A program made the position numbers and the translations under genes. This document shows, piece after piece, positions 12,301-64,000 of a DNA stretch of 64,000 nt (positions within the stretch are counted from its first letter, which is position 1; each line of letters starts with the position of its first letter). Under the pieces are notes generated by a model. That model ran no database searches, was not told where the DNA came from, and saw nothing but the letters and a program-made list of their open reading frames with translations. Source of the stretch: a virus; the IMG/VR virus record IMGVR_UViG_3300035666_000005, positions 56,877 through 120,876 of that record; one strand, written 5' to 3'.

Positions 12301-15300
12301 AGTATCCCCCGCAAGAAGCGATAGAGCGCTATCACCACCTTCGCCGAGTAATTTTTGTAATTCTGGCGGGAGTGAAGATTTTGCCTGTTCAATAAGTTTT
12401 TGATTTAATTCTCCAACTTTATTTTCGCCTTCTACTTGTTGTGTCGCAACTGTTTTACTATAACGTTTAATAAGTTCTGCATCAGATAATTGAGCAGCTT
12501 CCGGCTCCCCAATTTGTTCGGCGATTGATCTCCTAAAGCCTTCTAAGATTTCTCTTCCAGCCTCTCCTTCTACTCCGCCAAGTCCACTGATGACATTCGT
12601 TAATTGATTTTCAATATCTAATGCCCTAGCATCACGAATTGCGCTAATAACCGCGCTATTTTGACCTAACTCGGGGCCAAGGTTACGCCCAGTAATTTTA
12701 CTTAATTCGCTAACAACTCTTTGCAAGTTCCTACCAACTTCAATAATGCCTTTTTCTCCAGTTGGTTCCCCTATAATTTTTAAATTTGCAACGGCTTTAT
12801 CAAGACCTTCTGTGATACTGATATCATCATTAATAAAAGCCTGCAAACCACCAAAAGCACTATTAATAGAGGTTATTAGTTCGCGTAAACTTTCTTGAAA
12901 TTTTTGATTGGCAAGAATTGTTTTTTGCTCGATTAAAACTGCTTTATTTTTTACGAGTTCTTGATTAGTTTTATTTATGGCCTCACGAATAGCGTCTAAA
13001 CGTTTTTCACCTTCGGGGTCACCTTCGGGAATTTGTAGTGCTTGTGCAATTTCAGATAATTTAGCTTCTACGTCAAAACCAGTAAAAGTTGTCGGGTCTC
13101 CGATATCCAATAAACTACGAAACTGCTCTATATCAAAACCTTGTTTAACTGCTTCAGCTAAAACTCCTGCGGTTTCTAAATTTGCTTCGGCATTTTTTTG
13201 TGCATTATCGTCTCCGCCGATTGTACTCAAAGCTGCAAAAGATTGTCTTTGTTGTTCAAGAAATGCGCTACCAATTAAACTAATTGTTTCCCCAACAGAA
13301 TCTTTTATCGTATTGGCAAAATCCCCTTCTATTCTAAGAAGCTCTCCTTGTGTTTTACTGTCTGCCCGTCCAGCAGGGGTAGTTATTCCAAAAAGTTCTT
13401 CTTGAACGGCTTTTGTTTCAAATTGCGATACGCCGATGTTTGTTCCAGATTTTCTAATAGATGATTCACCCAAAAGTTGTAAATCAAGGGCAGACTGGCT
13501 TTGTCGCGCTAATTTCGCATAATTAGATTGTACGGTTTGTAAAGTTTTAGTTATTAATGCTATTACTTTATTGTTTTCACCGCTATTTCTCCCCGTCGCC
13601 TCTAAAGACGCTTTTAATTTATTTGCGGGGTCCGCAAGTTCGGCTATTAATTTTAAACCAACGCTAGGATTAAGTTTAAGAACAGCAACAAGATCATTAA
13701 TATTACTTTTACTTAAACCACTAAGAGGGGCTGTTTGAGTTAAAAGGTTTTCAAACTCTTCAAATATTTTATTCGCTTCATCTGTTGCGAAACCGGTAGG
13801 GCCGCCATCTGTTATTAAAGACCTCCGAGATATTTCCGATAATTGATTTATGCTATTTTCATCTAATTGCGTAATATTAATAATATCAGAAAAATTTTCT
13901 CCAATTTTGTCAAATTGTTTTTCAGAAATATTACCAGTAGATCTAGGCAGGGATTCAACTAAACTTGTTACAGCTAAATTTTTTTGCTGCGCTAGTGTAT
14001 TTTCTAAAACAGCATTTGTATTTTCTCCGATTACTTTTTGTAGAGATATAAAATCTTGATTTATTACAGCGGCGCTAGCTCCAGAAACTAATTCCGGAGT
14101 ATCTCTAAATTCTTTTCTAATAAATGAAAGTAAATCGGCTTCTAATTGGCCAGCTCTCTCGCCTTGACCAGCTTCTCTTAATTGTTTAATCTGTTCAAAA
14201 CTAGTTTGAACTTTTTGTCCCGCGTCATTTATCTTTGTAAGATTTTCAGAAGCCTTTTGTGCGGCGGCAGATAATTCTGGAATATCGGTAGACGCTTGTT
14301 TAATAACATCTATTAGCCCAAGCAAAGCTCCAGCGCTACCACCAATTGCCGCGCCAACAAGTGGATTTGGTGCCAGCATTGCCCCAAGACCAGCAAAAGA
14401 TCCCACTTGACCCAGAGCGCTAGCCCCAGCACCTAATGTTCTATCTGCTTTGGTTTCTTTCCCAATGGCATTCGCAATTGTTTCTGCAATAATTGGAGCT
14501 GCGATGGTTAAACCAATACCGCCTGCGCCAATAGCTGCGCCAGCTCTTTGACCACCTGTAGCTCCGTATCTTCCTTCTAACCCTCGAGCTTGGGCCTCTT
14601 CACCTGTTATTTTTCCCATTGCGACGAGTTGAGTATTAGCTGCTTTTTGAGCCTTTGTTAATTCTCCTGTTACCCGACCAGCTTCTTTATTTTTTTGAGT
14701 TAATTCAGTTAAACTTTGTTTATAAGAATCTCCAAAACCTTGAAGGCCAAAACCTAAAAATCCAATTTGAGTTGCAAGAGCCCCGAGTGAAGATCCTAAA
14801 TCTGCTGCTTGGGTATCTTCTGGTGCGAAGTTTGGAACAAAACCGCGAGCGAGACCTTGGGAGGCCGCCGAATTTTGAATCGCGCGCTTTAGACCTTCTG
14901 GATGATCTTTTTTAATCATCGCATTAAAATTAGACGATTGTCCGGGCTGGCGAACATATTGCATTCCTTTGTATTCGTCAAGCACAGCCCCTTTTCCGGC
15001 TTTTTTCTCTGTCTGTATAGCTCTTTCTCTAGCTTCTGTAATTGTTTTAGCAAAATTTGGAATAAAGCCAGCAGCTTTTCCTACAATACCAAATCTATCC
15101 CTTAAAGCTTGTCTTATCGCAACACTTCCAGTAACCCCCTCTTTTCTTAATTGGTCTACTGCGGCAGATCTTTCTTTAAGATAAGCGGCTCCAGCTTTAC
15201 CACTAGTTTTTTGAACAGTTGCTCCAGGTTTAGTTTCATTAAGAAGCTTTTGTAAAACTTCATTCGTTAATTCTGGAGATCTTTTTGCATCATATATCCC

Positions 15301-18300
15301 AGGAGCATTATTAAATATTGATCTTAGTCTTGGACTGATCTTACGAAAATCAATTCCGGCGTTCTGTTTTCTAACTTGATTCTGTAACAATGTTGTAATA
15401 CCGCCTTCAAAAGCAACACCTACAGCGCCTTTTGCGGCACCAGCGTTTGGAAGTTCATCGGCAGATTTTAAGAAATTAAAACCACCCAATGACTGACCAA
15501 ATTGATTAGCTTGTTTTACTAAGAAATCATCTATCTCTGTATCTAAATCTGGTAGTTGTGATTTAAGTTTGTCTTTATTTATTCCTGCTACTGGAATATT
15601 ACCTGTATATTGTTGTTTTAAATATGTTGCAGTGGCTGGCGCTAATTCATATGGTCCAGAAAGCCCAGGATAAATAAGAGATAAAACTTTTTTACCAAGT
15701 TTATTTGGAATTTTATCTAAATTTCCTAATTGAATTGGAGGGTTTTTTGTTTGGGCAAAATTTGGGATAAAGCCAGAAGCTAAATTTTTAAATGGAGCAT
15801 AAGATAAAATAATATTTTTTAATTTTAATTCATCAATAGTTCTATTTTTATATTTACCTCCAGCAGTTTGACCTTCATATTGTAAAGCTTTTGCGATTAA
15901 TATATTATCTGAAACTTTTCTTTGTGTTATTTTAGATTCTACTAAATAACTACCCCCCTGTTTTTTGACTAAAAAGTCCGCCCCAAATAAATCACCTTGC
16001 TTTTCTGCTACGCGACCTTTAGAACCAAAACGTCGCTGGGAATCTATTTCCCCCATTGCCCCTTTAATATTTGTATTATTAGAACGATCTTTTTTGGGGT
16101 CTAATAATGTTTGTGGTTTAATTTTATCTGTAAATTTAGAAATTGGTATTCCGCGATATTGCGAATTTTGGAAAATTGAGGCAACAGAAGAAGGATTTGA
16201 AGAAGCTTGATTTCTTATATTTTTAATAATATTATCTGCTTCTTTAGTATATTCTTTTACATTTTTAGGTAATGGTAATCTTTTTATGTTTGGCCTAAAA
16301 TATTCATCTTTTATTCCTTTATCTTTCGAATCTCCAACATTATATAAGTTTTGCAATAACCCTGCGGATCTTGACGCTTGTTTTTGTAAATTAGCAATTG
16401 TATCAACCGCGAAATTTGGAATAAAACCTTTTGCTTTATTTCTATCACTCTTATCTAAAATACTTCCACTTTCGCCATTAGCGATCATCTTTGTCGCTTC
16501 TTTAATTCCGTTTCCATATTTTGGAATTACTGCTGTTTCGCCTGTATTGGCAAAATTTCTTATTTGTAATTCTTGATTATTTGCTTCAAAAGATTTGCCC
16601 CCAATTTTTCCTACACCACGAACAGCCTTAACATTAGATGTAGCTCCTAATACTTTCGCTTGAAACTCTTCAGCAAAATTAGGAATATACCCACCAGCTT
16701 TTCCAGGTTTTGAAGTTTTTGCAACGGGAACTCCACCAGCAACTGTAACACTACCAGACCGAATAAATTGTGACGCAATTTTTGCAGAAATAGCTTCTTG
16801 TTTTTGTAATTCTAAAGTTTGTGCTCTTAAACTATTTAATAAAATTTCAGCGCCTTTATTTAAACCAGCGCTTCCTTGCTGCATTAATTTAAATAGTTCT
16901 GGATTTTTTTGTAAAATTTGTGCTACACTTTGCTGTAATTGCTGTTGTTGTTTAGAAGCTGTATTTAAATTTAAAAGTTCTTTTAAACTTCCAGTCGCAA
17001 ATTTTGCCAAATCTGAAAAAAGTTTAATAAAAATTCCGCCAATTAGTGCAAGTCCTGGGCCAGCAATTACTTGACCTAATCCATCTAAAATACCTTTTCC
17101 TAATGTGGCTCCCACTCCTTGCCCATCAGATTCATTAATACCACCAAGAATCTCATTCGTATTACCTACAACCCTATCAAAAGCTGGGCCAAATAATCTC
17201 TCACCAATTCCAGCCCCAGCCTGTTTAGCATTTTCTCTTAAAGCGTTTAATTGGGCAGCGTAAGTTTTATTTAATTCTTCATTACGACGAATAGCTTGGT
17301 CAGTAGTAGAGGCAGCGACCTGTAAAGCGTTATTGTATATAGAATATTCTTTACCTAAGTCTGCCAATGCAGATTTTAAAATGTTAATTTGGAATACGCC
17401 GCCAACTTTTTCTGCGACCTCTGCTTGTTGTAACGTTCCAAGTTGATCGTAAACTTTAGCAAGATCTGTTAATAAATTAATAGTACTTTTAATTTCTCCA
17501 GAAGAATCTCTTGTATTAACTCCCAAGCCTTCTAGTAAATCAACAACTTTAGTTCTTTGAAGTCTTGTGAAAATAGTTTTAAAGGAGTTACCGATTACCG
17601 CGCCACCACGAGCAGTTGTTTGTTGAGCCGAAGTAACAATGGCTATGAGTTCATTTAACGAAACGCCTGATTGAGCCGCACTACTACCAACACGACTAAT
17701 TGCTTCTGCAAGATCTGCAGAACTTACCGCAAAAGCTGCATCAACATTAGCAAACTTATTAACAATTTCTGTCGCCGTTACGGCTTGGCTAGCAAAAGAG
17801 TTTACTGACGCGGTAAGAGCTTCAACACTTTTAGCGGCATCCAATCCACTCAAACGAGAAAGAATTAAGGCCTCGTTAGTTCTTTTTAATGTTTCTGCGA
17901 CACCCAAACCTTGACGAGAAAATTCTGTAGCGGCTTTGGCAACTTCTGCGAAACTTTGCCCAGTATTTTTAGCGATACTAAATAAATTAGAACCAAATTT
18001 ATTTAATTCAGAAGAAGAGACATTTAAAATAACATTAATATCTGCTAAAGCTTTTTGGGTTTCTATGACAGAGCTGGCTAAAGCAGTAAAAGCTCTTTGT
18101 ACTCCAAAAATAATTCCAGCACTAGCACCGAAAGCGATAACACGCGCATTAGAAGCATCTAACGATTTAGTAAATTCATTTACTTTACCAGTAATCCTTC
18201 CAAGAGGCTGGTCGCCCCTTGTCTTTAAATTAATGTTGTAAGAACGACTAACAAGCTTTTGAATGTCTTTTTCAGCCTGTCTTGTATTTGCGCCTACATC

Positions 18301-18318
18301 AATATTAATAGCAGCCAT
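9313..18318 (-). CDS. Tail tape measure protein (3001 aa) with inserted cargo modules
   Basis: N-terminal TP901-type TMP domain (FSRQGL...FAVSSADLAEA...GGAVIGNSFKTIFTRL), Ala/Gly-rich hydrophobic stretches, canonical position after tail tube and chaperones. Confidence 0.92.
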   Translation of the reverse strand: MAAINIDVGANTRQAEKDIQKLVSRSYNINLKTRGDQPLGRITGKVNEFTKSLDASNARVIAFGASAGIIFGVQRAFTALASSVIETQKALADINVILNVSSSELNKFGSNLFSIAKNTGQSFAEVAKAATEFSRQGLGVAETLKRTNEALILSRLSGLDAAKSVEALTASVNSFASQAVTATEIVNKFANVDAAFAVSSADLAEAISRVGSSAAQSGVSLNELIAIVTSAQQTTARGGAVIGNSFKTIFTRLQRTKVVDLLEGLGVNTRDSSGEIKSTINLLTDLAKVYDQLGTLQQAEVAEKVGGVFQINILKSALADLGKEYSIYNNALQVAASTTDQAIRRNEELNKTYAAQLNALRENAKQAGAGIGERLFGPAFDRVVGNTNEILGGINESDGQGVGATLGKGILDGLGQVIAGPGLALIGGIFIKLFSDLAKFATGSLKELLNLNTASKQQQQLQQSVAQILQKNPELFKLMQQGSAGLNKGAEILLNSLRAQTLELQKQEAISAKIASQFIRSGSVTVAGGVPVAKTSKPGKAGGYIPNFAEEFQAKVLGATSNVKAVRGVGKIGGKSFEANNQELQIRNFANTGETAVIPKYGNGIKEATKMIANGESGSILDKSDRNKAKGFIPNFAVDTIANLQKQASRSAGLLQNLYNVGDSKDKGIKDEYFRPNIKRLPLPKNVKEYTKEADNIIKNIRNQASSNPSSVASIFQNSQYRGIPISKFTDKIKPQTLLDPKKDRSNNTNIKGAMGEIDSQRRFGSKGRVAEKQGDLFGADFLVKKQGGSYLVESKITQRKVSDNILIAKALQYEGQTAGGKYKNRTIDELKLKNIILSYAPFKNLASGFIPNFAQTKNPPIQLGNLDKIPNKLGKKVLSLIYPGLSGPYELAPATATYLKQQYTGNIPVAGINKDKLKSQLPDLDTEIDDFLVKQANQFGQSLGGFNFLKSADELPNAGAAKGAVGVAFEGGITTLLQNQVRKQNAGIDFRKISPRLRSIFNNAPGIYDAKRSPELTNEVLQKLLNETKPGATVQKTSGKAGAAYLKERSAAVDQLRKEGVTGSVAIRQALRDRFGIVGKAAGFIPNFAKTITEARERAIQTEKKAGKGAVLDEYKGMQYVRQPGQSSNFNAMIKKDHPEGLKRAIQNSAASQGLARGFVPNFAPEDTQAADLGSSLGALATQIGFLGFGLQGFGDSYKQSLTELTQKNKEAGRVTGELTKAQKAANTQLVAMGKITGEEAQARGLEGRYGATGGQRAGAAIGAGGIGLTIAAPIIAETIANAIGKETKADRTLGAGASALGQVGSFAGLGAMLAPNPLVGAAIGGSAGALLGLIDVIKQASTDIPELSAAAQKASENLTKINDAGQKVQTSFEQIKQLREAGQGERAGQLEADLLSFIRKEFRDTPELVSGASAAVINQDFISLQKVIGENTNAVLENTLAQQKNLAVTSLVESLPRSTGNISEKQFDKIGENFSDIINITQLDENSINQLSEISRRSLITDGGPTGFATDEANKIFEEFENLLTQTAPLSGLSKSNINDLVAVLKLNPSVGLKLIAELADPANKLKASLEATGRNSGENNKVIALITKTLQTVQSNYAKLARQSQSALDLQLLGESSIRKSGTNIGVSQFETKAVQEELFGITTPAGRADSKTQGELLRIEGDFANTIKDSVGETISLIGSAFLEQQRQSFAALSTIGGDDNAQKNAEANLETAGVLAEAVKQGFDIEQFRSLLDIGDPTTFTGFDVEAKLSEIAQALQIPEGDPEGEKRLDAIREAINKTNQELVKNKAVLIEQKTILANQKFQESLRELITSINSAFGGLQAFINDDISITEGLDKAVANLKIIGEPTGEKGIIEVGRNLQRVVSELSKITGRNLGPELGQNSAVISAIRDARALDIENQLTNVISGLGGVEGEAGREILEGFRRSIAEQIGEPEAAQLSDAELIKRYSKTVATQQVEGENKVGELNQKLIEQAKSSLPPELQKLLGEGGDSALSLLAGDTNKIISLQFSAANKTLEEILKAIQNTQNSADLKIAKFLQDPFSNATLPTEKPVIDRTAPKPELPKTYSSGSIPLEAIPAMIAEKRDVKRGVGGARPSDRPTFIPNFNGAPVVANIGEQLIKNYMGTGEDALLTRDMQRAAKGSLPKLDTTELDKYLDDPRHELESRILSVKTKIKQLTPPVSYLQRVELEQLERELFLLQNPKAEILTKDGVKPNPYFDKDGKYIRRKKKKPEIKNPFKNMAEGFVPKSGISGSSSNQRITSGMGSIMSALDTPEWELYQRISELEYEIPRTPEPGDFGYQDKDYGKKQALRNELFLLKNPKFKPNPYFDKDGKYIRRKKKKPEIIKNPFKNMAEGYIPNFAEGFVPMPEIPYSLIKQANEINQKYKKELDPLTKSKTELNTLVDIFQEEKKKSFYNHMAKRANWDENRSKQAWNNLAELDLTSPERDRRLKEYFGWDPSLYKDNDQLNNLIKERDKTLEKINEIEKSYDKAAEPLVSEFRKTGANASDFLNPRELYNLSTLFYRQKEWNKSRQSDKQMMARDKLAAQRAKERARTEAVIKRTEAVIKRGRETLARSYEMTGDRYEIDEYGGAGTFTVDAQRLGLRGPGAGGTFNIATSTDRAGIKPTTEIRRAERTTQANAKFMLQSLVEAYTQALSGQEGFYNRPTRQSMDQKRALMAKTQEFKRLYEQGRYESLREIYEKHEKNDPVKQAYAEWAKQGIDPNEGYDRAMAYGRDQEALYQRARNESVIDEIVGIPKDQRSQGFIDGRPTREVLAEGRTNRPSDPAYDRAMIAAGLDPKTGSPLNSEQPTYGPGGAGLIDGRPAQEVLREMEKNNANARIKNYSEGFLPKINSFMDEVNAGFAPNEVYQKRQPEVQGLNNPEGMATFNTPQEKNNIAKERMAMANRMYIPNFANSVPEFSAVSVSLGGLTVNEAQTGGKTQDYAKELGSEIEARVGPLITQIKSEMDQKYGRAAEMVASAERQGILPRVAPRTR
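11235..11669. repeat. Near-identical ~100-bp direct repeat inside the tape measure gene (copies ~11235-11336 and ~11571-11669)
   Basis: Both copies encode KPNPYFDKDGKYIRRKKKKPEI(I)KNPFKNMAEG; they differ by one inserted codon. Confidence 0.9.
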
Positions 18319-57887: not shown

Positions 57888-58451
57888 ATGGATATTAAAA
57901 ATGATTTAAAATTTGAGAGTGAATATTGGGGTGATTGTACGAATACTTTTGATGAAGACCAAAAACACTATGTATATGCAAAGTATATGGGTTTACAACA
58001 AGAACATTTTAGTTTTAATATTTTTGGTAAATCAGTATTAGATATTGGCGGTGGTCCAACTTCAATGCTTCTTAAAACTAGAAACTTAAAAGAGGGTCTA
58101 GTATGTGATCCATTAAATTATCCACATTGGACAACATTAAGATATTTAGAAAAAAATATTAATGTAAAAGTAATTCGTGGAGAAGATGTCGTAGAAGAAG
58201 GGTGGGACGAAGTTTGGATTTATAATTGTTTACAGCATACAGACGATCCAGAAAAAATTATCCATAACGCATTAAAAGCCGCCAAAGTCCTTAGAATCTT
58301 CGAATGGGTAGACGTTCCTCCACACGAAGGTCATCCGCAAATGATTACTAAAGAATTTCTAGACAAGGCAATTGGTAAAGAAGGAAATACCGTCCAGCTT
58401 GCTGAAAATGGCTGCTTTGGTAAAGCTTATTTTAATATTAAGTTTATCTAG
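57888..58451 (+). CDS. Class I SAM-dependent methyltransferase
   Basis: VLDIGGGP and NCLQH motifs. Confidence 0.8.
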   Translation: MDIKNDLKFESEYWGDCTNTFDEDQKHYVYAKYMGLQQEHFSFNIFGKSVLDIGGGPTSMLLKTRNLKEGLVCDPLNYPHWTTLRYLEKNINVKVIRGEDVVEEGWDEVWIYNCLQHTDDPEKIIHNALKAAKVLRIFEWVDVPPHEGHPQMITKEFLDKAIGKEGNTVQLAENGCFGKAYFNIKFI

Positions 58452-60009
58452 TTTCGCGCCACTGTAAACTAGCAAAAGTATCACTTGCATTAGTGCCAAT
58501 TCCAGATCCAATTATAACAAAAACATTACTATTCGTACTATCGATATTTTGACTAATATATCCTCTTTTTGCGCTTGATAAAGCTGCTATTTGAGATTGT
58601 GCGCTAAATTTTCCAGCACCCTGACCGCCAGCAATGCAATATCCTGCGTCTACTAGCATTCCACTTGTAAAATTAACGCTTGTTGCACTAATATTATATT
58701 GAACAACGCTTTCATCATTTGCACTCACCCAAGAACCGCCAACTATCTGCCCCGTGCTTGGAATTCTCCAAAGCTCATAAGTTATTGCATCTGTTAAAGT
58801 ATAAATATTGGCCATGTTTGCTCTGACAACACTACGGTTTGGTTTTCCGTAATATCCAGTTTTTAATGCTATCGCAACTAAAGGAAGTTGACTGGTTGTA
58901 GTTACAGATCTTGCCATTGTATTTCTTGCTGAAAAATCTACACCTGCTTCATTGTAGCCACCCTCACTAATAACCGTTGCACAAATTTGATCCATCGTAT
59001 CTGTACCAACTGCGCTGCTATAATTTCTAATTTCACACCGGACTGGAAGATTTGGATTACTCCAATAAACGGCGGGTTTATTATTACTATTATAGAATTC
59101 GTGAGCAATCACGCTTTCGCCATTATGAACAAACCCAGCGCGTACTCTTCCAACCCCAAGCCATTGAAAATCTGCTGTAAATAATTGAGTTTTAGTAGGG
59201 TCTAAATTAAAACTCGACGCACCACTTCCATTGCATTTATCAATGTTCCAATTATTTTGTGTTATTCTTTCTTCCGATACAAATCCAGAAACATCACCTC
59301 TTAAAACAAGTGATAAAGTCCCATCGCCGCTCTGTTCAAAAAAGATTCCATTACGGTCATCAAAAAGACCAATTCTTTTATTTGTGCCATTACGATATCC
59401 TGTAAAATTAAAACTTTGGAAAGTTAATTCACTTTTACCTGGCATGTAGTGATGATACATGCGGCTTTGGTGGATGGTAAAATCATTTGCGCCAGTCCCA
59501 ACTTGCAATATTGCTTTTGCTTGATTAACATTGAATGATACAGAAGCATTCGCCCCACTAGTTTTAGTTAATAGTTCTGTTTCTTCTCCATAAACATGGG
59601 AATAGTCAGCGAGGGTAAATGGGTTAGATATTCTTTGGCGACCAAATGCATCTATTTGCGCTGATTGACTTGAAAAATTAGTTACATTAACATTAACTGG
59701 ATTGGTTACAGATACGTTACCCGTAACGTTTTGAACTGTTGGAAAATTCGCAACAGTTACGTTGCCCGTAACGTTACCCGTAACGTTTTGAACTGTTGGA
59801 AAATTCGCAACAGTTACGTTGCCCGTAACGTTACCCGTAACGTTTTGAACTGTTGGAAAATTCGCAACAGTGACGTTGCCTGTAACGTTTTGAACAGCTG
59901 GGAAATTGTTTACTAAAACTCCATCAACAACCGAAACTTGCACAGGTGTATTTTGGCCTTCTTGTTCGGCTTTATGTATTGTTTTGATCACTGTTGTACT
60001 ATTACACAT
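58444..60009 (-). CDS. Putative virion structural protein with NVT-rich repeat stalk
   Basis: DAFGRQRISNPFTL and DFQWLGVGRVR lectin-like phage domain; likely start 60009. Confidence 0.65.
   Translation of the reverse strand: MCNSTTVIKTIHKAEQEGQNTPVQVSVVDGVLVNNFPAVQNVTGNVTVANFPTVQNVTGNVTGNVTVANFPTVQNVTGNVTGNVTVANFPTVQNVTGNVSVTNPVNVNVTNFSSQSAQIDAFGRQRISNPFTLADYSHVYGEETELLTKTSGANASVSFNVNQAKAILQVGTGANDFTIHQSRMYHHYMPGKSELTFQSFNFTGYRNGTNKRIGLFDDRNGIFFEQSGDGTLSLVLRGDVSGFVSEERITQNNWNIDKCNGSGASSFNLDPTKTQLFTADFQWLGVGRVRAGFVHNGESVIAHEFYNSNNKPAVYWSNPNLPVRCEIRNYSSAVGTDTMDQICATVISEGGYNEAGVDFSARNTMARSVTTTSQLPLVAIALKTGYYGKPNRSVVRANMANIYTLTDAITYELWRIPSTGQIVGGSWVSANDESVVQYNISATSVNFTSGMLVDAGYCIAGGQGAGKFSAQSQIAALSSAKRGYISQNIDSTNSNVFVIIGSGIGTNASDTFASLQWRETR
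59714..59908. repeat. 57-bp (19-aa) tandem repeat VANFPTVQNVTGNVTGNVT, ~3.4 copies
   Basis: TTGAACTGTTGG recurs at 59731, 59788 and 59845. Confidence 0.92.
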
Positions 60010-60048
60010 TTTTTTTATTCTTTTTTTAAATATTAATATAATGTTTAT

Positions 60049-60207
60049 ATGAAACAGTGTCAAATGCACATATCCCCAGCGCCCGAATGTCTTGTGCCAT
60101 GCCCAGAAGAAGCTACCGAAATACTAACATTAGGTAATCATACAGACATGTTACTTTGTAAAGAACACTACAAGTCTTTTAATAATCTTCATAAACAAGA
60201 AGATTAA
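60049..60207 (+). CDS. Small Cys/His zinc-finger-like protein (52 aa)
   Basis: MKQCQMH...C...C...LCKEH; TATAAT at 60037-42, 6 nt before the ATG. Confidence 0.55.
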   Translation: MKQCQMHISPAPECLVPCPEEATEILTLGNHTDMLLCKEHYKSFNNLHKQED

Positions 60208-60535
60208 ATTAAAATCTAGAAAAATAAAAACCCCGCCGAATTTTTAGATTTGATTATTATTATTTATTATCTTTTACTCTTAAAGTTTTAGAAAAGGGTA
60301 GGGGGTGGCGTACATATATAAATACAGAGAAACCTATACATTACTATAGGAATATGTATAGAAACTATATATAAGAATAAGAGTAATGGGTTAAATTAAA
60401 TTAATTAAAATAAAAGTCCAGGAGATTGAAATTTCACCCCCCCGGCCCTAAAAAATAAAACGCCTGTTCGAATTTTTTCAAAAATGGGAGGGGGTTATCA
60501 CCTCAAAAAAAATTTAAAAAAATGCAAAAAATCGC

Positions 60536-60563
60536 TTGCTTTTCTGCCGTCCCGTGCTATTCT
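60536..60563 (+). promoter_or_regulatory. Sigma70-type early promoter (leaderless)
   Basis: TTGCTT-N16-(TGc)TATTCT with upstream A-tracts; ATG 6 nt downstream. Confidence 0.75.
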
Positions 60564-60569
60564 TTAACC

Positions 60570-60752
60570 ATGAAGAAGAAATACTACACCAGCACAGAGA
60601 TCATCGAATACGCCGAACAGGTCGGCGCGGTCTGCACCTTCGCCTCGCTCAGTCTGCGAGTGTTCAAAGGATGGACAGCGAAAGGCTCTTACGAGGTCAA
60701 ATTCCATCGCGTTGAGCCTTGCGTGTGGATGAAAAAAATCGTAAGAAAATAA
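60570..60752 (+). CDS. Small early protein (60 aa)
   Basis: MKKKYYTSTE...; start set by the promoter. Confidence 0.7.
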   Translation: MKKKYYTSTEIIEYAEQVGAVCTFASLSLRVFKGWTAKGSYEVKFHRVEPCVWMKKIVRK

Positions 60753-60761
60753 AAAAATCCC

Positions 60762-60789
60762 TTGACTCTCACCGCATCTCTGATACTCT
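60762..60789 (+). promoter_or_regulatory. Sigma70-type early promoter (leaderless)
   Basis: TTGACT-N16-(TGa)TACTCT; ATG 6 nt downstream. Confidence 0.75.
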
Positions 60790-60795
60790 AAAAGC

Positions 60796-60975
60796 ATGAA
60801 AGAAAAAACACCACAAAAAGGCCAGCTCTGGGTGAGCGGCAACACAGTCTACCGCGTCATTCGTAACGAGGGCGACAAGACTCACGCTCATAATCATGGT
60901 AAGATGGGCCTGTTCTACACACGCAATCTGAAGATTGCGACCCCTTCCCAAGTCGCAGAATACTTGGGAAAATAG
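60796..60975 (+). CDS. Small early protein (59 aa)
   Basis: MKEKTPQKGQLWVSGNTVYRV...; translated by hand, below the ORF-track cutoff. Confidence 0.7.
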   Translation: MKEKTPQKGQLWVSGNTVYRVIRNEGDKTHAHNHGKMGLFYTRNLKIATPSQVAEYLGK

Positions 60976-61011
60976 TTTGACAATCACCACAAAACCTAAC
61001 AGAATAACAAC

Positions 61012-61200
61012 ATGACAAAAAAACAATTCACCGCCATCGCTCACATCTTGGGAAAACGCTTGGCCGAAAAAGTCGAAGCACCCATCGCAGAATACGAAGT
61101 CATCGAAGCTATCGCGTCTGACTTTGTCGAATACTTCAAAACTCAAAATCCTTTGTTTAAGGAAGAACTCTTTTTGGAAGCCTTCTATACCAGAAAATAA
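61012..61200 (+). CDS. Small early protein (62 aa)
   Basis: MTKKQFTAIA...NPLFKEELFLEA; upstream TTGACA-N17-CAGAAT-N6-ATG. Confidence 0.75.
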   Translation: MTKKQFTAIAHILGKRLAEKVEAPIAEYEVIEAIASDFVEYFKTQNPLFKEELFLEAFYTRK

Positions 61201-61204
61201 AACT

Positions 61205-61294
61205 ATGTCAATCTGGGTTCCACTCTTTTACCTGTGCATCTTTCCTTCTGCTTGTGCGATCCTCATCCTCTGGGCTGATTCCAGACAAAAATAA
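61205..61294 (+). CDS. 29-aa membrane peptide
   Basis: MSIWVPLFYLCIFPSACAILILWADSRQK; fills the gap between neighbouring ORFs exactly. Confidence 0.5.
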   Translation: MSIWVPLFYLCIFPSACAILILWADSRQK

Positions 61295-61298
61295 TCAC

Positions 61299-61478
61299 AT
61301 GAAAAAATACATCACATTCGACAAGATTGCCTACGCAATGTCCCTCTCCACATTCATCTTCATCGCGGTAACGCTTTGTGCTGCTTGCATTGACTTGCAA
61401 CACCGAACCAGCAAAAACCAAAAGCAAATGCAGGAAGAAGTCCGCGCAATGTTTGCCCACATCGAGAAACCTCTATGA
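61299..61478 (+). CDS. Small membrane protein
   Basis: One hydrophobic helix; likely start 61299. Confidence 0.6.
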   Translation: MKKYITFDKIAYAMSLSTFIFIAVTLCAACIDLQHRTSKNQKQMQEEVRAMFAHIEKPL

Positions 61479-61675
61479 TCACACCCAACATCCAAAAAGC
61501 TCTTGAGTCAAACGGAGTCCGTTTCTTTGCAAAAGACTTCCTCATGGAAGGTATGCGGAAAGACTGCGTTGACGCCGTGCATGATGCAAAACTCGTTTAT
61601 GACTTACTGCGCGAACGCATGGAAGTCATTCTCTCACTCACTCCAACTTATCCAGAAACAGAAACAAATGAGTAA
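61475..61675 (+). CDS. Small early protein (66 aa)
   Basis: ATGA-coupled to the previous gene; RKDCVDAVHDA motif. Confidence 0.65.
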   Translation: MITPNIQKALESNGVRFFAKDFLMEGMRKDCVDAVHDAKLVYDLLRERMEVILSLTPTYPETETNE

Positions 61676-61856
61676 AGACCAAGTCAAAGCCGTGTGCGAT
61701 TACTCGCATGATGTCATAAAAAAAATCAGAGCAATGTTTGGCATAAAGAAAAAAGTGCCGTCACTTCTTTGTCATAGTCTCGCGCACCTGAACACCGCGA
61801 CATGGCTCGAGCGCGCCGTATGCAACGGCACAATCATGGACTACAAGCCGCGATAA
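61668..61856 (+). CDS. Small early protein (62 aa)
   Basis: MSKDQVKAV...; overlaps the previous stop. Confidence 0.6.
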   Translation: MSKDQVKAVCDYSHDVIKKIRAMFGIKKKVPSLLCHSLAHLNTATWLERAVCNGTIMDYKPR

Positions 61857-61857
61857 C

Positions 61858-62045
61858 GTAAAGCGCTAATAATCAAGCACTTACGGCGGCGCGCCCCGCC
61901 GCGCGACCTAAGTCCTTGATATTCAACGACTTACACAAACACACATTCACGAAGCATGCCAACATGCGTGTCAAGCACAAAAAATATTTTTTTTAATCGT
62001 AAAAAAATCCCTTGCTTTTTCCATGATCTGTGCTACTCTGTATGT
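61858..62045 (+). repeat. 188-bp intergenic element, copy 1 (palindrome - GC hairpin - palindrome - TGCCAA/TGTCAA box - A/T tracts - promoter)
   Basis: Colinear with 63122..63309; landmarks at identical offsets. Confidence 0.92.
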
Positions 62046-62399
62046 ATGAAAGATAAAGAAAACACCACGTTCAACGTCAACGGAACCCTCTGCACGCTCG
62101 TCGTCTCGGAAGACTTCGATGGAGATTGCACTAAACTCTGGCACGAACTCGTCAGCGTCGAGACTGGCAAGACCATCCACACTCTCGGCTGGTCGCCTTA
62201 CTCTTGCCCTTCTGATGAAGAAGTGCAACAGATCATCGACCTCGGTTTGCCCGATGGTTTGCGCTGGGCTAACTTCGATCCCTACTCTGGTTTCAACTTC
62301 GACAGCGAAACGCTGGCGAAATACCTCGCTGGCTACGAAGGTGTCAATGGTGGAAAAATGGAATTGACCTTCCGCAAGCGTTCCGCCATGGCCGCATAA
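62046..62399 (+). CDS. Early protein (117 aa)
   Basis: MKDKENTTF...; ATG 6 nt after the -10 box TACTCT (62034-39). Confidence 0.75.
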   Translation: MKDKENTTFNVNGTLCTLVVSEDFDGDCTKLWHELVSVETGKTIHTLGWSPYSCPSDEEVQQIIDLGLPDGLRWANFDPYSGFNFDSETLAKYLAGYEGVNGGKMELTFRKRSAMAA

Positions 62400-62442
62400 A
62401 AAATCTCTTGCCATTAACCTCAACATCCCATATCCTAACAAT

Positions 62443-62733
62443 ATGAACAGCATCCACGACGACTACAACACGCAAACGCAATCCGACGAATACGCGACCG
62501 AGCACGAGGAAGTGCGCGGCACGTTCGCGGCTGAACCCGCCAACGAGGACAACCTCACACCCGCGCAGGAGTTTGACATCCTGTTCGGTTACGCCGAGGA
62601 GCGTCACCGCAACGATCCGTGCGCGCGTCCCGCGCCGGAACCCTACGATGGGTTCGAGGGTCAATGGCCTGGGGATGGGTCTGGCTTCGACGACCTCGCG
62701 GACTTGGGCGAACAGGAAGGTTGGGACAATTAA
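62443..62733 (+). CDS. Highly acidic early protein (96 aa)
   Basis: 25 D/E versus 4 R and 0 K; promoter TTGCCA-N17-TATCCT-N6-ATG. Confidence 0.75.
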   Translation: MNSIHDDYNTQTQSDEYATEHEEVRGTFAAEPANEDNLTPAQEFDILFGYAEERHRNDPCARPAPEPYDGFEGQWPGDGSGFDDLADLGEQEGWDN

Positions 62734-62737
62734 AATT

Positions 62738-62968
62738 ATGACAAACACAGACGGCATCATCAAGTCACTCGAAACGCTCATCAAGCATGAGAAAGTTATC
62801 CAAGCGCAAGAGTGCGACATCATCCAACTCAAAAACCTTTTAGCGCAAGCCTTGCACACGATCACCGCACACGAGCAAAAACTTAACTTCCTGTGTGGCG
62901 TTTCGACTACGCTTGCGGTAGAATTGGGCGCAGTGAAAAATCAGCAATTCTCGCAAGGAGTCAACTAA
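62738..62968 (+). CDS. Small coiled-coil protein
   Basis: MTNTDGIIKSLE...; likely start 62738. Confidence 0.65.
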   Translation: MTNTDGIIKSLETLIKHEKVIQAQECDIIQLKNLLAQALHTITAHEQKLNFLCGVSTTLAVELGAVKNQQFSQGVN

Positions 62969-62969
62969 C

Positions 62970-63122
62970 ATGAGCAGAATAATTATGACAATCGACACGC
63001 GCCCACTCGCGCGCGCGATTGAGCGAAGCGTTCGCAAGACAACTTGCAAGCCTTCATTCGCTATGCGTGTCAAGAAAAAATTCGCGCGCAAGGCAAAGTT
63101 TTTTCGCGGTTGGTCTGACTAG
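62970..63122 (+). CDS. Small basic protein (50 aa)
   Basis: AAGGAG SD upstream; MSRIIMTIDTRPLARAIERSVRKTTCKPSFAMRVKKKFARKAKFFRGWSD. Confidence 0.6.
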   Translation: MSRIIMTIDTRPLARAIERSVRKTTCKPSFAMRVKKKFARKAKFFRGWSD

Positions 63123-63309
63123 TAAAGCGTTGAATATCAACGACTTACGGCGGCGCGCCCCGCCGCGCAGCGTAACTCATTGCAAATCAAGCACTTACAG
63201 AATATGCTGTTCAGATGCCGTGCCAAGTGTCTTGTCAAGCAGAAAAAAAATATTTTTTTAATCGCAAAAAAATCATTGCATTTTTGCGCGGCTGTGCTAT
63301 TCTTTAAGC
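63122..63309 (+). repeat. 188-bp intergenic element, copy 2
   Basis: Same architecture as 61858..62045 with an identical 20-bp GGCGGCGCGCCCCGCCGCGC core. Confidence 0.92.
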
Positions 63310-63465
63310 ATGACAGAGAAAGAAAAACAAATCCAAGCCCTCGAGGAAAAACTCGAACAAATCGCAAACGACTTGATTGATCCCATGCTGGACGATCAAA
63401 CGACCGTTTTACTTCATGCAATGAGAAAAGTGCGCGAAAAAATAAACGCTCTCGTCGCGGAATAA
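63310..63465 (+). CDS. Small coiled-coil protein (51 aa)
   Basis: MTEKEKQIQALEEKLEQIA...; ATG 6 nt after TATTCT (63298-303). Confidence 0.7.
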   Translation: MTEKEKQIQALEEKLEQIANDLIDPMLDDQTTVLLHAMRKVREKINALVAE

Positions 63466-63503
63466 TCCTTGCAACCGAACGCAAAATCACAGAAAATAAA
63501 ATT

Positions 63504-63746
63504 ATGAAAATCACCAAGACTGACCTCTACGACACCCTCATCCAAGCTCGCGTTGCCTTGTCGAAAGACATCCGCGAAACCTTGCGGGGTCGCCACCTCT
63601 CCTACGTTCAAGACCTCTCGCGGAAATCCATCCGCGAAAAAATCGCGGCCTATCGGTTGCTCTCTAACCTCTCGGAAATCAACGCGGAAACCTACACGCA
63701 CAGCAAGCGTGACCTCGCTCGCGTAAAAAAAGCTCTTGCCAAGTAA
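63504..63746 (+). CDS. Small early protein (80 aa)
   Basis: ORF-track ORF with TTGCAA-N17-GAAAAT-N6-ATG upstream. Confidence 0.7.
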   Translation: MKITKTDLYDTLIQARVALSKDIRETLRGRHLSYVQDLSRKSIREKIAAYRLLSNLSEINAETYTHSKRDLARVKKALAK

Positions 63747-63771
63747 CGCAACCTCTGACAAAATCACCACC

Positions 63772-64000
63772 ATGACACTACTAAGCACCAACAACACCAA
63801 AATCAAAAAAGGCGAAAAGCTCGGCTGGCGCACTTACGGCCTTTCACTCTCACCCGCTGGCAAAAGTGGCAAACAATTCTGTCCGCATCGCTCGACTGGT
63901 TGCGAGTTTGCTTGCTTGGATGAAAGCGGCATGGGAATCTTTGCCAACGTGCAAGCGGCTCGCCTTGCAAAGTCTCGTTTCTTCATCGACAATCGCAACG
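63772..64000 (+). CDS. Phage gp88-like Cys-rich protein (partial)
   Basis: MTLLSTNNTKIKKG...LSLSPAGKSGKQFCPHRSTGCEFACLDESGMG...VQAAR; CP-x5-C-x3-CL pattern recalled from the GP88 family. Confidence 0.7.
   Translation, partial: MTLLSTNNTKIKKGEKLGWRTYGLSLSPAGKSGKQFCPHRSTGCEFACLDESGMGIFANVQAARLAKSRFFIDNRN

Follow-up and report, generated by a model that had tools for sequence, protein, structure and literature searches.

A composite palindrome and promoter-like element between early-gene cassettes of large uncultured phages

Introduction

What kind of signal lies between the small genes at the end of this phage record, and does it end genes, start them or allow them to be exchanged? The DNA that we analysed (the window, 64,000 nt) is the end of an incomplete virus record of 120,876 bp (~80% complete). 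A first-pass annotation had described two copies of a rigid 188-bp intergenic element in it, each thought to delimit early-gene cassettes, and had proposed a nucleoprotein platform acting as a cassette-exchange site, an injection-control signal or a regulatory unit. It had also likened the element to the PeSLs (promoter-early stem-loops) of T4-type phages. These pair a strong sigma-70-like promoter with a stem-loop that acts as a transcription terminator, and they are involved in the shuffling of gene modules (Arbiol et al. 2010, PMC2839356).

Two copies of the element at the end of the record

A computational search for repeats in the window confirmed the two 188-bp copies at 61858-62045 and 63122-63309, 1264 bp apart, and a re-reading of every offset bore out that their landmarks are equally placed. 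The TGCCAA-N6-TGTCAAGC module lies at +99 in both copies (61957 and 63221), the -35 box at +154 (62012 and 63276), the -10 hexamer at +176 (62034 and 63298) and the ATG at +188 (62046 and 63310). The 20-nt GC core is identical between the copies; no other site in the window matches it even at 3 mismatches, and the control for this search gave 0 matches in 100 shuffles. Other details of the description held for one copy only. Copy 2 does start at the upstream stop codon (TAG, 63120-63122, overlapping the first column of the element, column 1), but in copy 1 the TAA at 61854-61856 ends 1 nt before column 1. Similarly, both copies carry the 27-bp palindromes, but the first palindrome of copy 1 is a poor one, with 6/12 arm positions complementary by our own reading. 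The features, all on the plus strand, are as follows.

61858-61884, plus strand: first 27-bp palindrome of copy 1, weakly palindromic, with half-sites GTAAnnnnTTGA / TCAAnnnnTTAC, a 3-nt A/T centre and an IHF-consensus match at 61871
61885-61907, plus strand: GC-rich hairpin core of copy 1, with the 20 nt shared by both copies at 61885-61904 plus a 3-nt joint
61908-61934, plus strand: second 27-bp palindrome of copy 1, its centre 50 bp from that of the first
61957-61976, plus strand: TGCCAA-N6-TGTCAAGC module of copy 1; the reverse complement of TGCCAA resembles a sigma-54 -24 box
61977-62011, plus strand: A/T-rich, UP-element-like tract of copy 1, upstream of the -35 box
62012-62039, plus strand: putative promoter of copy 1, with -35 TTGCTT (62012-62017), TG (62031-62032) and -10 TACTCT (62034-62039); ATG at 62046, 6 nt past the -10
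62046-63122, plus strand: cassette 'B' between the copies, with four small ORFs (62046-62399, 62443-62733, 62738-62968 and 62970-63122)
63122-63148, plus strand: first 27-bp palindrome of copy 2, with complementarity at 10/12 arm positions; it starts on the final base of the upstream stop codon
63149-63171, plus strand: GC-rich hairpin core of copy 2
63172-63198, plus strand: second 27-bp palindrome of copy 2
63221-63240, plus strand: TGCCAA-N6-TGTCAAGC module of copy 2
63241-63303, plus strand: A/T-rich tract and putative promoter of copy 2, with -35 TTGCAT (63276-63281) and -10 TATTCT (63298-63303); ATG at 63310, 6 nt past the -10

None of the four small proteins encoded by the cassette matched a known family. 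Within the cassette, a promoter-like site at 62408-62436 ends 6 nt before the ATG at 62443. The last ORF, which is cut by the end of the record, matches GP88/phrog_1617. Because the record ends 691 bp after copy 2, the two copies in the window are an undercount.

A family of elements confined to early-gene arrays of related phages

The phage encodes a tape measure protein of 3000 amino acids (PF10145, E 4e-27), and the best relatives of its terminase, from Clostridium and Bacillus phages, have ~25% identity or less. A blastn search with positions 60400-64000 against 50,697 phage records returned no match, and literature searches for the core and arm words retrieved unrelated papers only. Judged from its sequence, the source is a large uncultured siphovirus without a close isolate and represents a new phage lineage. 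The 3000-residue ORF was also considered as an N4-like virion RNA polymerase, which would use hairpin promoters, and was rejected as such once recognized as the tape measure protein.

The further copies sought in relatives were found, with 7-15 plus-strand copies per relative, 0.5-2.4 kb apart and spread over 12-16 kb. In all, we collected 65 distinct copies of the element. They are confined to an array of small same-strand genes with a GC content of 45-50%, the rest of the genomes having ~30% GC, and tRNA genes are interspersed in the early arrays of the relatives. The element was present in 72/82 viral loci fetched with its framework pattern, and its geometry is rigid across these loci. The same pattern in 185,579 species genomes gave 24 matches, of which 5 look real and lie on contigs of 1.2-4.2 kb; the matches to core and framework in these genomes are tiny contigs binned into unrelated phyla.

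The palindrome module is conserved as sequence and geometry

The first part of the element is a 77-bp nested palindrome, in which two 27-bp palindromes 50 bp apart surround the GC-rich hairpin, and it adjoins the upstream stop codon. Sixty-four family copies align without gaps over 80 columns, and TGCCAA begins at column 100 in 34/62 members. The spacer measures 23 nt in 168/180 instances and the loop 3 nt in all 166 of 166. Core sequences vary by lineage and are still hairpins (mean GC 0.87), with CCCC on the sense strand in 49/63 copies and GGG(G) in 7. A stop codon lies no more than 4 nt from column 1 in 30/33 cases, 14 of these stops being a TAA that belongs to the element; in relatives, tRNA-Cys and tRNA-Met genes are also directly followed by elements. 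Palindrome pairs are spaced exactly 50 bp apart, or 60 bp apart in the chains of two relatives (L088 and L081), a difference of 10 bp or about one helical turn. Some relatives carry such palindromes and hairpins as tandem chains, L088 having 7 palindromes within ~430 bp. These chains go beyond the needs of a simple terminator.

Folding of the module is predicted to be more stable than that of shuffled sequence, both as RNA (z -2.0 to -3.5) and as DNA (z -2.3 to -3.1). The predicted folds differ between the window copies, one forming a long hairpin and the other three hairpins; the long imperfect hairpin is predicted for the RNA of copy 1 and for the minus strand of both copies. A covariation test for RNA structure was negative for both folds, with pairing at or below that in shuffled columns (72.5% vs 73.3% and 73.2% vs 75.2%). 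The top pair in a mutual-information scan, columns 20-58, is non-complementary and pairs in 6/63 copies vs 24.6 expected, so that pairing at variable positions is depleted. A 2x2 internal mismatch inside the stem likewise stays unpaired in most copies. A U-tract past the module is mostly absent (TTTT within 15 nt in 6/62 copies), leaving the module short of the definition of an intrinsic terminator; a consensus scan detected no terminator-like site at either window copy, an Rfam 15 covariance-model search of 60000-64000 gave 0 matches at E up to 1, and ARAGORN found no tRNA in the window. Without a regular U-tract or a terminator-like site in the scan, the module does not qualify as a canonical intrinsic terminator.

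By column, the conserved pattern of the palindromes is YAA-N4-TTGA-W3-TCAA-N4-TTA, and its variable columns coincide with the N4 block of the IHF consensus. The strict consensus WATCAANNNNTTR occurs at column 14 in 45/63 copies and at column 64 in 22/63, this being the E. coli consensus. On the minus strand, the E. coli consensus is matched at the two positions in 8 and 16 of 63 copies, respectively. Because the arms are conserved as sequence and not as base pairs, a protein partner of the IHF/HU type is probable, and a dimeric DNA-bending protein of this kind, once bound, would act together with the 5' half of the element. A search of 5 phage genomes found no HU/IHF-family protein encoded in them. 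The first-pass annotation's reading of the element as a nucleoprotein platform is plausible on these patterns.

A putative promoter module with a start codon at the predicted transcription start

The earlier proposal of a regulatory unit was borne out for the 3' half of the element, where a promoter module is recognizable by its sequence pattern, A/T tracts followed by TTGNNN-N16/17-(TG)n-TANNNT. The window holds 4 copies of this module, of which 2 lack the palindrome module; these 2 and a further promoter-like site are listed below.

60505-60572, plus strand: promoter module without palindrome module, the first promoter of the GC-rich early array, with -35 at 60536-60541, -10 at 60558-60563 and ATG at 60570
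60731-60798, plus strand: promoter module without palindrome module, with -35 TTGACT (60762-60767), -10 at 60784-60789 and ATG at 60796
63736-63774, plus strand: promoter-like site (TTGCCA-17-CAAAAT) placed 7 nt ahead of the ATG (63772) of the GP88-family gene that runs off the record

Across the family, TTGNNN-N16/17-TANNNT occurs within 340 nt downstream of 49/62 elements, the other 13/62 having no detectable promoter downstream. The promoter-bearing elements place the ATG exactly 6 nt past the -10 in 43/49 cases, in a search that allowed 4-9 nt, and have TG ahead of the -10 in 40/49. Because the ATG follows the -10 at this distance of 6 nt, each cassette probably begins with a gene translated from a leaderless mRNA; a Shine-Dalgarno motif precedes only 12/84 ORFs in the genome. 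A generic consensus scan did not list the four proposed promoters, whose hexamers each match TTGACA/TATAAT at 3-4/6 positions. We propose that the 3' half is an early promoter, with a geometry that is directly observed and an activity that would depend on the host RNA polymerase. Its parts would be an A/T-rich upstream tract, a -35 TTGnnn, a spacer of 16-17 nt ending in TGn and a -10 TAnnnT.

The reading as a rigid 188-bp unit did not extend to the relatives: their ATG lies anywhere between 120 and 280 nt past column 1 (n=49), most often at 188 (9/49). Exact spacing holds there for the first ~105 nt, that is, for the 77-bp palindrome and the TGCCAA offset, but not for the rest. Because the distance between module and promoter is not fixed, the palindrome module is autonomous. 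The 188-bp unit can be taken apart into two modules, a 77-bp nested palindrome and an A/T tract with a sigma-70-like promoter.

Two candidate signals on the minus strand were also considered. A sigma-54 promoter was dropped as a general feature: in the reverse complement of the CGTGCCAA region, TGGCAY-N5-YTGC was found in 13/62 copies only. A sigma-54-like -24 box alone occurs in 21 more of the 62, and the GC at -12 is, by our own reading, absent from both window copies; the comparison uses the familiar sigma-54 consensus. A sigma-70 promoter, TTGGCA-16-TATTCT at 63226-63199, is confined to copy 2 and its closest relatives.

Gene order breaks more often at the elements than elsewhere

The idea that the elements delimit exchangeable cassettes gained support from the relatives, where copies are many, gene order varies and the breaks fall at elements. 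Gene-family adjacency was kept in another genome for 44/140 pairs across an element (31%) vs 304/430 pairs elsewhere (71%), counts that use non-independent genome pairs and crude ORF calls. A comparison of the gene content between copies showed that order is not fixed and that cassettes are permuted, with the order A-B-C in three genomes and B-A-C in four. Single-gene cassettes between two elements are present in some relatives and absent in others.

Among element pairs, 28 share the upstream gene and differ in the downstream gene, 19 show the reverse and 6 have both genes in common, which gives 47 pairs with discordant flanks vs 6 concordant ones. Copies that share the upstream gene have identities of 0.94 in the first palindrome and 0.92 in the core, vs baselines of 0.70 and 0.73, and the downstream parts of the element travel with the downstream gene; for pairs sharing only that gene, similarity often begins only at the promoter. 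Similarity breaks off at scattered points between columns ~29 and ~174, with concentrations at a number of conserved patches.

A dedicated recombinase did not emerge: searches of 5 genomes, 2 of them complete, detected no tyrosine recombinase, serine recombinase or Y1 transposase. PF00589, the family of IntI-type tyrosine recombinases, gave 0 matches in these 5 genomes, with a positive control in 14/14 genomes, and PF01797 (Y1 transposase) also gave 0 matches in the 5. Element copies are direct repeats of one another, nearly identical over 50-100 bp, and because of these repeats we attribute the permutation of cassettes to homologous recombination. General recombination between copies would have permuted, inserted and deleted whole cassettes, as the observed pattern suggests.

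Interpretation

These observations are, in our judgment, probably best described by a PeSL-like composite boundary and promoter cassette of an early host-takeover-type array that is shuffled by homologous recombination. Adjoining or overlapping the upstream stop codon, or following a tRNA gene, the 5' half most likely delimits the upstream transcription unit at its 3' end. It could do so as a terminator or attenuator, as a stabiliser of the 3' end or as an insulator.

Several other readings address the same features. There is some chance, albeit a modest one, that the module is a DNA-level insulator, in which two IHF/HU-like sites flank a cruciform-prone GC palindrome and shield cassettes from the supercoiling and read-through of their strong neighbours, the RNA hairpin being incidental. 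Such a folded nucleoprotein or topological insulator would be similar to those REP/BIME elements that contain an IHF site. Arms whose sequence is conserved and whose variable N4 blocks coincide with those of the IHF consensus, the lack of covariation with depleted pairing at variable positions, the 50-bp and 60-bp palindrome spacings about one helical turn apart and a module autonomous of promoter distance all fit this reading, and REPs reportedly recruit IHF and influence mRNA turnover (PMC3479197, PMC2817692). However, the 5 phage genomes have no HU/IHF gene and the host may lack an IHF of E. coli specificity. A symmetric DNA site would also have no need of the sense-strand CCCC bias (49/63 vs 7), which common descent could nevertheless produce, and the tight coupling to stop codons fits an RNA-level role at least as well. 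A more elaborate version, which we consider rather unlikely, is a geometry-locked nucleoprotein boundary site for which there is no described phage counterpart. Two symmetrised IHF-type bending sites would clamp the cruciform-prone hairpin and insulate leaderless cassettes both topologically and transcriptionally; the site would also be a preferred point of protein-assisted exchange, as in an integron-like array without an integrase. If so, the complex would depend functionally on the internal mismatch that is kept in the stem and on the 50/60-bp phasing. Slightly less likely still is a signal for RNA processing instead of termination, comparable to the RNase III sites that separate T7 early genes; long early transcripts would be cut at it into cassette-sized mRNAs with a protective hairpin end. 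The long imperfect hairpin predicted for copy 1 RNA (and for the minus strand of both copies), a 2x2 mismatch unpaired in most copies and a module placed between genes of a co-directional array with no U-tract after it are what such a signal might look like. Yet there is no covariation, the Rfam search was empty at E up to 1, different folds are predicted for the two window copies and each cassette has its own promoter, so that cutting would be needless for separate messages.

Readings that invoke site-specific or selfish mobility would fit part of the pattern. In an attC-like scheme, an unrecognised phage or host recombinase would cut the invariant GC core and move cassettes. Such a scheme would suit cassettes that each have an imperfect palindrome at the 3' end, the permuted order, the cotransmission of first palindrome and core with the upstream gene and of the downstream parts with the downstream gene, and the mismatch kept systematically inside a long stem. 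The latter recalls the extrahelical bases that attC sites carry. Still, we regard the scheme as improbable: tyrosine and serine recombinases and Y1 HUH transposases were not found in the 5 genomes (2 complete), similarity-loss points are dispersed over >100 bp as homologous exchange predicts, cassettes bear their own promoters and the inverted arms stand 23 nt apart, a spacing well in excess of the crossover regions in known tyrosine recombinase sites. Nested inverted repeats, many copies and mosaic and tandem variants would also suit a selfish MITE- or REP-like miniature element that spread through the array without function for the phage. This seems very improbable for copies that sit at gene ends only, in one orientation and in the early array only, that are absent from bacterial chromosomes (5/24 framework matches look real, on contigs of 1.2-4.2 kb) and that come with no transposase found; position-specific conservation and rigid geometry over 72/82 viral loci argue for selection. 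The injection-control signal of the earlier proposal, a stop or pause in stepwise DNA entry as in T5, would agree with a location in the early region of a large siphovirus, but is hardly to be expected with 7-15 copies per genome across 12-16 kb, numbers that do not suggest a single stop signal.

If the reading as a PeSL-like boundary and promoter cassette is right, modular shuffling of the PeSL type extends beyond T4-like myoviruses: large uncultured siphoviruses that form an unrelated, widespread group follow the same principle by means of another element, one that is much more stereotyped. Three features lend themselves to testing: a compact boundary signal unlike a canonical terminator, an apparently symmetric IHF-type site present two or more times per junction, and an array of predicted promoters that would place the ATG at the transcription start of phage genes without a Shine-Dalgarno motif. 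For annotation, a 77-bp profile marks the early-gene arrays and likely assembly break points in this phage group.

Comparison with known systems

In large lytic phages such as SPO1 and T5, the early host-takeover arrays consist of numerous short operons of small genes, and each operon has a strong host-type promoter and a terminator. The arrays described here resemble them in their small-gene early operons with predicted host-type promoters of their own and, in the relatives, in the interspersed tRNA genes; arrays of the SPO1/T5 type are, to our knowledge, not known to share a single conserved boundary element of locked geometry at all their junctions. Integron attC sites are similar in that an imperfect palindrome directly follows the cassette coding sequence, cassette order and number vary among related genomes and stem mismatches are kept. 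They differ from the phage element in relying on an integrase, of which none was found here, and on one common promoter, in contrast to the cassettes' own promoter-like modules (49/62 elements) and the dispersed exchange points. The arms of attC sites are ordered R''-L''...L'-R', an order not followed here, where by our own reading a GTTRRRY-like word precedes an RYYYAAC-like word within one palindrome.

In the RIP or BIME-1 layout, REPs are arranged around an IHF site. The phage element reverses this layout, with IHF-like palindromes flanking a hairpin rather than REPs flanking an IHF site as in the BIME. In other respects the element is akin to the REP/BIME sequences of enterobacteria, which are described as intergenic and usually just past genes, with GC-rich hairpins regularly spaced with short motifs (PMC3333891, PMC2817692, PMC3479197). 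They too have mosaic and tandem variants and an association with the IHF consensus, and are proposed to act in mRNA 3'-end stability and DNA topology. The phage element, however, is found in phage genomes only and not in bacterial chromosomes, has no REP-associated Y1 transposase (RAYT) and is in most copies tied to a promoter.

The analogy with PeSLs was supported by the finding of exchangeable early-gene cassettes that are delimited by repeats and whose order breaks at the elements. There are differences. PeSLs belong to T4-like myoviruses, whereas the element here is from a siphovirus with a 3000-residue tape measure protein, and we noticed no sequence similarity between the two. The PeSL stem-loop most often lies between or over the -35 and -10 boxes (PMC2839356). 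Its counterpart here, the nested palindrome of 77 bp, is rigid, has arms conserved in sequence and lies ~40 nt or more ahead of the -35. PeSL stem-loops are stable, often contain G and C runs and serve as terminators or attenuators; the GC hairpin here has a CCCC run in 49/63 copies and folds better than shuffled sequence, with no covariation and with a U-tract in 6/62 copies. The 3' end of a PeSL is described there as a Shine-Dalgarno sequence (PMC2839356); the present element is without one and has its ATG 6 nt past the -10. Terminator activity, and cassette mini-circles that arise by recombination between neighbouring copies, are also reported as demonstrated for PeSLs, whereas for the present element both would be predictions. 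There are also likenesses. Both elements combine a G/C-rich stem-loop, an A/T-rich tract and a sigma-70-like early promoter (PMC2839356; Comeau et al. 2014, PMC4122927), and a dedicated recombinase is not known for either. Both also cluster in hyperplastic regions, among small genes of unknown function, and in both ~100 bp of conserved sequence is the exchange point at which cassettes are inserted, deleted or replaced.

Copies in the window and genome setting

Each offset of the 188-bp intergenic unit that the first-pass annotation had described before early-gene cassettes was re-read in the sequence. The two copies align without gaps and, as claimed, carry every landmark at an identical offset:

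61858-62045, copy 1 of the element
63122-63309, copy 2 of the element

The 20-nt GC core is the same in both and unique to them in the 64 kb, even at three mismatches (0 matches in 100 shuffles used as a control). Over their first 81 nt, the copies show 79% identity. Their last 77 nt recur twice more in the window, at 60505 and 60731, making a family of four, and neither of these additional members is preceded by a palindrome. Even in the window, the element thus combines two modules that are found separately as well.

The parent record (120,876 bp, linear, ~80% complete) has the window as its final 64 kb. GC content is 27-38% over most of the window and jumps at about 60,400 to 43-55%, a level kept until the record ends. 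The same jump, from ~30% to ~47%, occurs where the early-gene array begins in relatives (L003, L004, L007 and L012) and is therefore a genuine genome property rather than an assembly chimera. The GC-rich part consists of arrayed small genes on the plus strand that belong to no known family. Structural genes lie on the minus strand of the AT-rich part and encode the terminase large subunit, tail fibre proteins and a tape measure protein:

9313-18318, minus strand, tape measure protein of 3000 aa with PF10145 at residues 115-306

The length of this protein implies a very long tail and, with the other structural genes, identifies the phage as a large siphovirus. No relative of the terminase above 60% identity was found among 50,697 phage records (best match about 25%). 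Shine-Dalgarno motifs precede just 12 of 84 ORFs genome-wide, and the regions upstream of starts are A/T-rich without G enrichment. This scarcity suggests a host making little use of Shine-Dalgarno sequences, as would be expected of a host such as the Bacteroidota. Many ORFs of at least 150 aa in the AT-rich region have the recurring word (A/T)GTGTAA(T/A) some 12-20 nt upstream of the start codon, possibly as a middle or late promoter signal. At 59714-59934, a 57-bp unit is repeated three and a half times in tandem with 97-100% identity, so that the N-terminal part of another structural protein contains a repeated peptide of the NFPTVQNVTGNVTGNVTVA type:

58444-60009, minus strand, virion structural protein of 521 aa (phrog_1645, E 7e-94)

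Distribution of the element

Searching for exact matches to the core and six bases flanking it brought up 11 further IMG/VR contigs, each holding 1-3 copies. Five of these records, two of them 100% complete (166.5 and 170.5 kb), were searched and then scanned with a profile, as the annotation had proposed. Further copies were indeed present, 7-15 per record, all on the plus strand, spaced 0.5-2.4 kb apart and restricted to the 12-16 kb GC-rich array. The two copies first reported are thus real but an undercount, owing to the end of the record. We gathered 65 distinct copies, 64 of which (63 distinct rows) entered an 80-column alignment with zero gaps, numbered from the element start.

A framework pattern that specified the inner arms and left the core free matched 90 stretches in viral contigs, with a core of at least 70% GC in 72 of the 82 loci examined. 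Applied to 185,579 species genomes of bacteria and archaea, the same pattern matched 24 stretches. Five of them resembled true elements, all on 1.2-4.2 kb contigs binned into unrelated phyla, and the remaining stretches had neither outer arms nor a GC core. Matches so few, and on such short contigs, argue that the element belongs to phages and is not a host repeat. Element-bearing contigs in metagenome-assembled genomes of Alphaproteobacteria, Thiobacillus, Oscillospiraceae and Verrucomicrobia (L052, L053, L138, L142 and L153) are probably misbinned phage fragments. No isolate phage carrying the element emerged from a blastn search of window positions 60400-64000 against the 50,697 phage records, and a literature search on the core and arm words returned nothing relevant.

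Geometry and conservation of the 5′ module

Two 27-bp palindromes (columns 1-27 and 51-77), each with a 3-nt A/T centre, flank a GC-rich hairpin (columns 28-50). Since one consensus is common to all four arms, two drawings of the 77 bp are possible, three hairpins or one long nested hairpin; the predicted folds of the window copies differ, one copy following each drawing. Of 180 distinct instances, 168 have an inner-arm spacer of 23 nt; the palindrome centre never departs from 3 nt (166 of 166), and the two palindromes of a pair lie exactly 50 bp apart. Core sequence is variable: the exact 20-mer occurs in 17 of 63 copies, and distant lineages carry other GC-rich hairpins and, in one case, an AT-rich one. 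In 34 of 62 copies, the TGCCAA motif begins at column 100. Read on the minus strand, the conserved CGTGCCAA region (61957-61962 and 63221-63226) looks like a sigma-54 -24 box; the full -24/-12 pattern is found in 13 of 62 family members and in neither window copy. Two loci of relatives hold tandem chains in which 27-bp palindromes alternate with two kinds of hairpin, 23-nt GC-rich and 33-nt mixed, giving palindrome spacings of 50 and 60 bp:

L088:2650-3100, tandem chain with 7 palindromes within about 430 bp
L081:12190-12640, tandem chain

These chains are mosaic forms of the element, and the one with 7 palindromes exceeds the needs of a terminator.

The 77-bp module may be an RNA-level boundary signal or a protein-bound DNA structure. 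Where a conserved gene family ends upstream (33 cases), its stop codon is no more than 4 nt from column 1 in 30, and in 14 of those 30 it is the element's own TAA (columns 2-4). All copies share the orientation of the genes, and the sense strand carries CCCC in 49 of 63 cores versus GGG(G) in 7. This position fits a signal ending a transcription unit. Predicted folding was better than that of shuffled sequence (RNA z -2.0 to -3.5; DNA z -2.3 to -3.1). A covariation check for RNA structure, proposed in the annotation, came out negative when base pairs were counted for both drawings: 72.5% of cells pair as three hairpins versus 73.3% in shuffles, and 73.2% versus 75.2% as one long hairpin (500 of 500 shuffles at least equal). 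The complementarity derives from the conserved columns TAA, TTG(A), (T)CAA and TTA, with A3, T10, A18, T24, T25, A53, A54, T60, A68, T74 and T75 invariant; within each arm, four positions change freely and for the most part do not pair. Of all column pairs in the alignment, 20 and 58 are the most strongly associated; they are in long-hairpin register yet non-complementary, pairing in 6 of 63 copies versus 24.6 expected. The central dinucleotides are fully complementary in 25 of 128 instances of a wider set (40.8 expected). This depleted pairing may reflect selection for mismatch or two subfamilies. Two observations speak against a plain intrinsic terminator: TTTT follows the module within 15 nt in just 6 of 62 copies, and a consensus scan gave no terminator-like site at the window copies.

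For the protein-bound alternative, the conservation pattern YAA-N4-TTGA-W3-TCAA-N4-TTA equals the IHF consensus as printed in the literature, WATCAANNNNTTR, on both strands about a central A/T; the printed consensus is that of E. coli and may not be the host's. Of 63 copies, 45 match this E. coli consensus strictly at column 14 and 22 do so at column 64; the other strand gives 8 and 16 matches. In the IHF-DNA crystal structure obtained by Rice and colleagues in 1996, the protein dyad is reportedly near the W of the consensus, in which case the 27-bp palindrome would be the expected target of a symmetric homodimeric IHF/HU-type protein. We treat such binding as a lead suggested by the sequence rather than a result. 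An HU/IHF-family protein was encoded in 0 of the 5 phage genomes examined.

The element also directly follows tRNA-Cys and tRNA-Met genes in the early array of relatives, its first arm overlapping the tRNA 3′ end; the window has no tRNA gene.

L044:12322-12394, tRNA gene (Cys or Met) before an element
L044:16209-16282, tRNA gene (Cys or Met) before an element
L045:8348-8418, tRNA gene (Cys or Met) before an element
L045:11545-11618, tRNA gene (Cys or Met) before an element

The promoter-like 3′ module

Within 340 nt after 49 of 62 elements we found TTGNNN, a 16-17 nt spacer and TANNNT, with TG ahead of the -10 in 40 of the 49. The hexamers are moderate matches, and a generic promoter scan did not report these sites. 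The distance from the -10 to the ATG is exactly 6 nt in 43 of 49, in a search that admitted 4-9 nt. Since a start at the usual distance from the -10 would fall on the A of ATG, this geometry predicts that the first cassette genes would be leaderless. The distance from column 1 to ATG varies from 120 to 280 nt (188 in 9 of 49), so the palindrome module is not phased with the promoter. Part of this variation is explained by an extra palindromic module in 7 of 62 copies (columns ~110-150; e.g., L010:3332), which gives rise to the longer form of ~208 nt and could serve as a second operator. It consists of the palindrome TTCAAACG-N2-CGTTTGAA followed by TCAACAAAAATA, between the TGCCAA motif and the promoter. 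The single, rigidly spaced 188-bp unit of the annotation therefore holds for the landmark offsets in the window and for the 77-bp module, but not for the element-to-ATG distance or, across relatives, the whole unit.

Cassette shuffling at the element

The plus-strand ORFs of nine arrays were clustered into 61 shared families, and each array was coded as a string of families and elements. Gene content between copies, a comparison also proposed initially, differed as expected of exchange sites: cassettes were permuted or present in some genomes and absent in others, and breaks were commoner at elements. Cassettes A, B and C are ordered A-B-C in three genomes (the window's among them) and B-A-C in four, and single-gene cassettes (families 56 and 30) lie between two elements in some genomes and are missing in others. 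Across an element, family 7 is followed by four different families and family 6 by five. Adjacency was kept in another genome for 304 of 430 pairs without an intervening element versus 44 of 140 across one, an odds ratio of 5.3 that comes from non-independent pairs and crude ORF calls.

We then compared 980 inter-genome pairs from 48 elements by their flanking genes: 28 had the same upstream and a different downstream gene, 19 the reverse and 6 both the same. Same-upstream pairs were similar in the first palindrome (0.94) and core (0.92) versus baselines of 0.70 and 0.73, with the second palindrome near baseline; in same-downstream pairs, the promoter and gene alone rose above baseline. Similarity was lost anywhere from column ~29 to ~174, with clusters at 72-79, 100-103, 131-133 and 158, which argues for exchange within the element at several places. 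Homologous recombination between dispersed direct repeats predicts such dispersed exchange points. The suggested genome search for a recombinase was negative, with no tyrosine recombinase, serine recombinase or Y1 transposase in five genomes (two complete) and positive controls; a RecA-like match, below cut-off, appeared in one genome only.

Comparison with known systems

An attC site was ruled out by the 0 tyrosine recombinases in the five genomes and the dispersed exchange points. The element has a likeness to REP/BIME repeats with IHF sites; unlike them, it is not found on chromosomes and comes without a transposase. Among described systems, the PeSL, the promoter-early stem-loop cassette of T4-type phages, comes closest, and the analogy drawn initially was borne out by shuffling at the elements, the combination of promoter and hairpin, and dispersed crossovers. 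PeSLs are described as small cassettes with a strong sigma-70-like promoter, an A/T-rich upstream region and a transcription-terminating stem-loop, often with G and C runs; in these accounts they concentrate in hyperplastic regions as exchange points of modular shuffling, with crossovers mapped at several places inside the element and no dedicated recombinase known (PMC2839356, PMC4122927). The present element shares the promoter, A/T-rich region, stem-loop, hyperplastic setting and shuffling at several internal places so described, its termination and promoter activities being putative, and again no dedicated recombinase was found, here in five genomes. It occurs in another phage lineage, lacks the Shine-Dalgarno feature of the published PeSLs and differs from them in the position and form of the stem-loop. 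To the PeSL as described, it would add a geometry-locked nested palindrome, sequence-conserved IHF-like arms, stop-codon coupling and a leaderless design. We conclude that the element is a phage regulatory/recombination cassette of an already known kind, in a new form.
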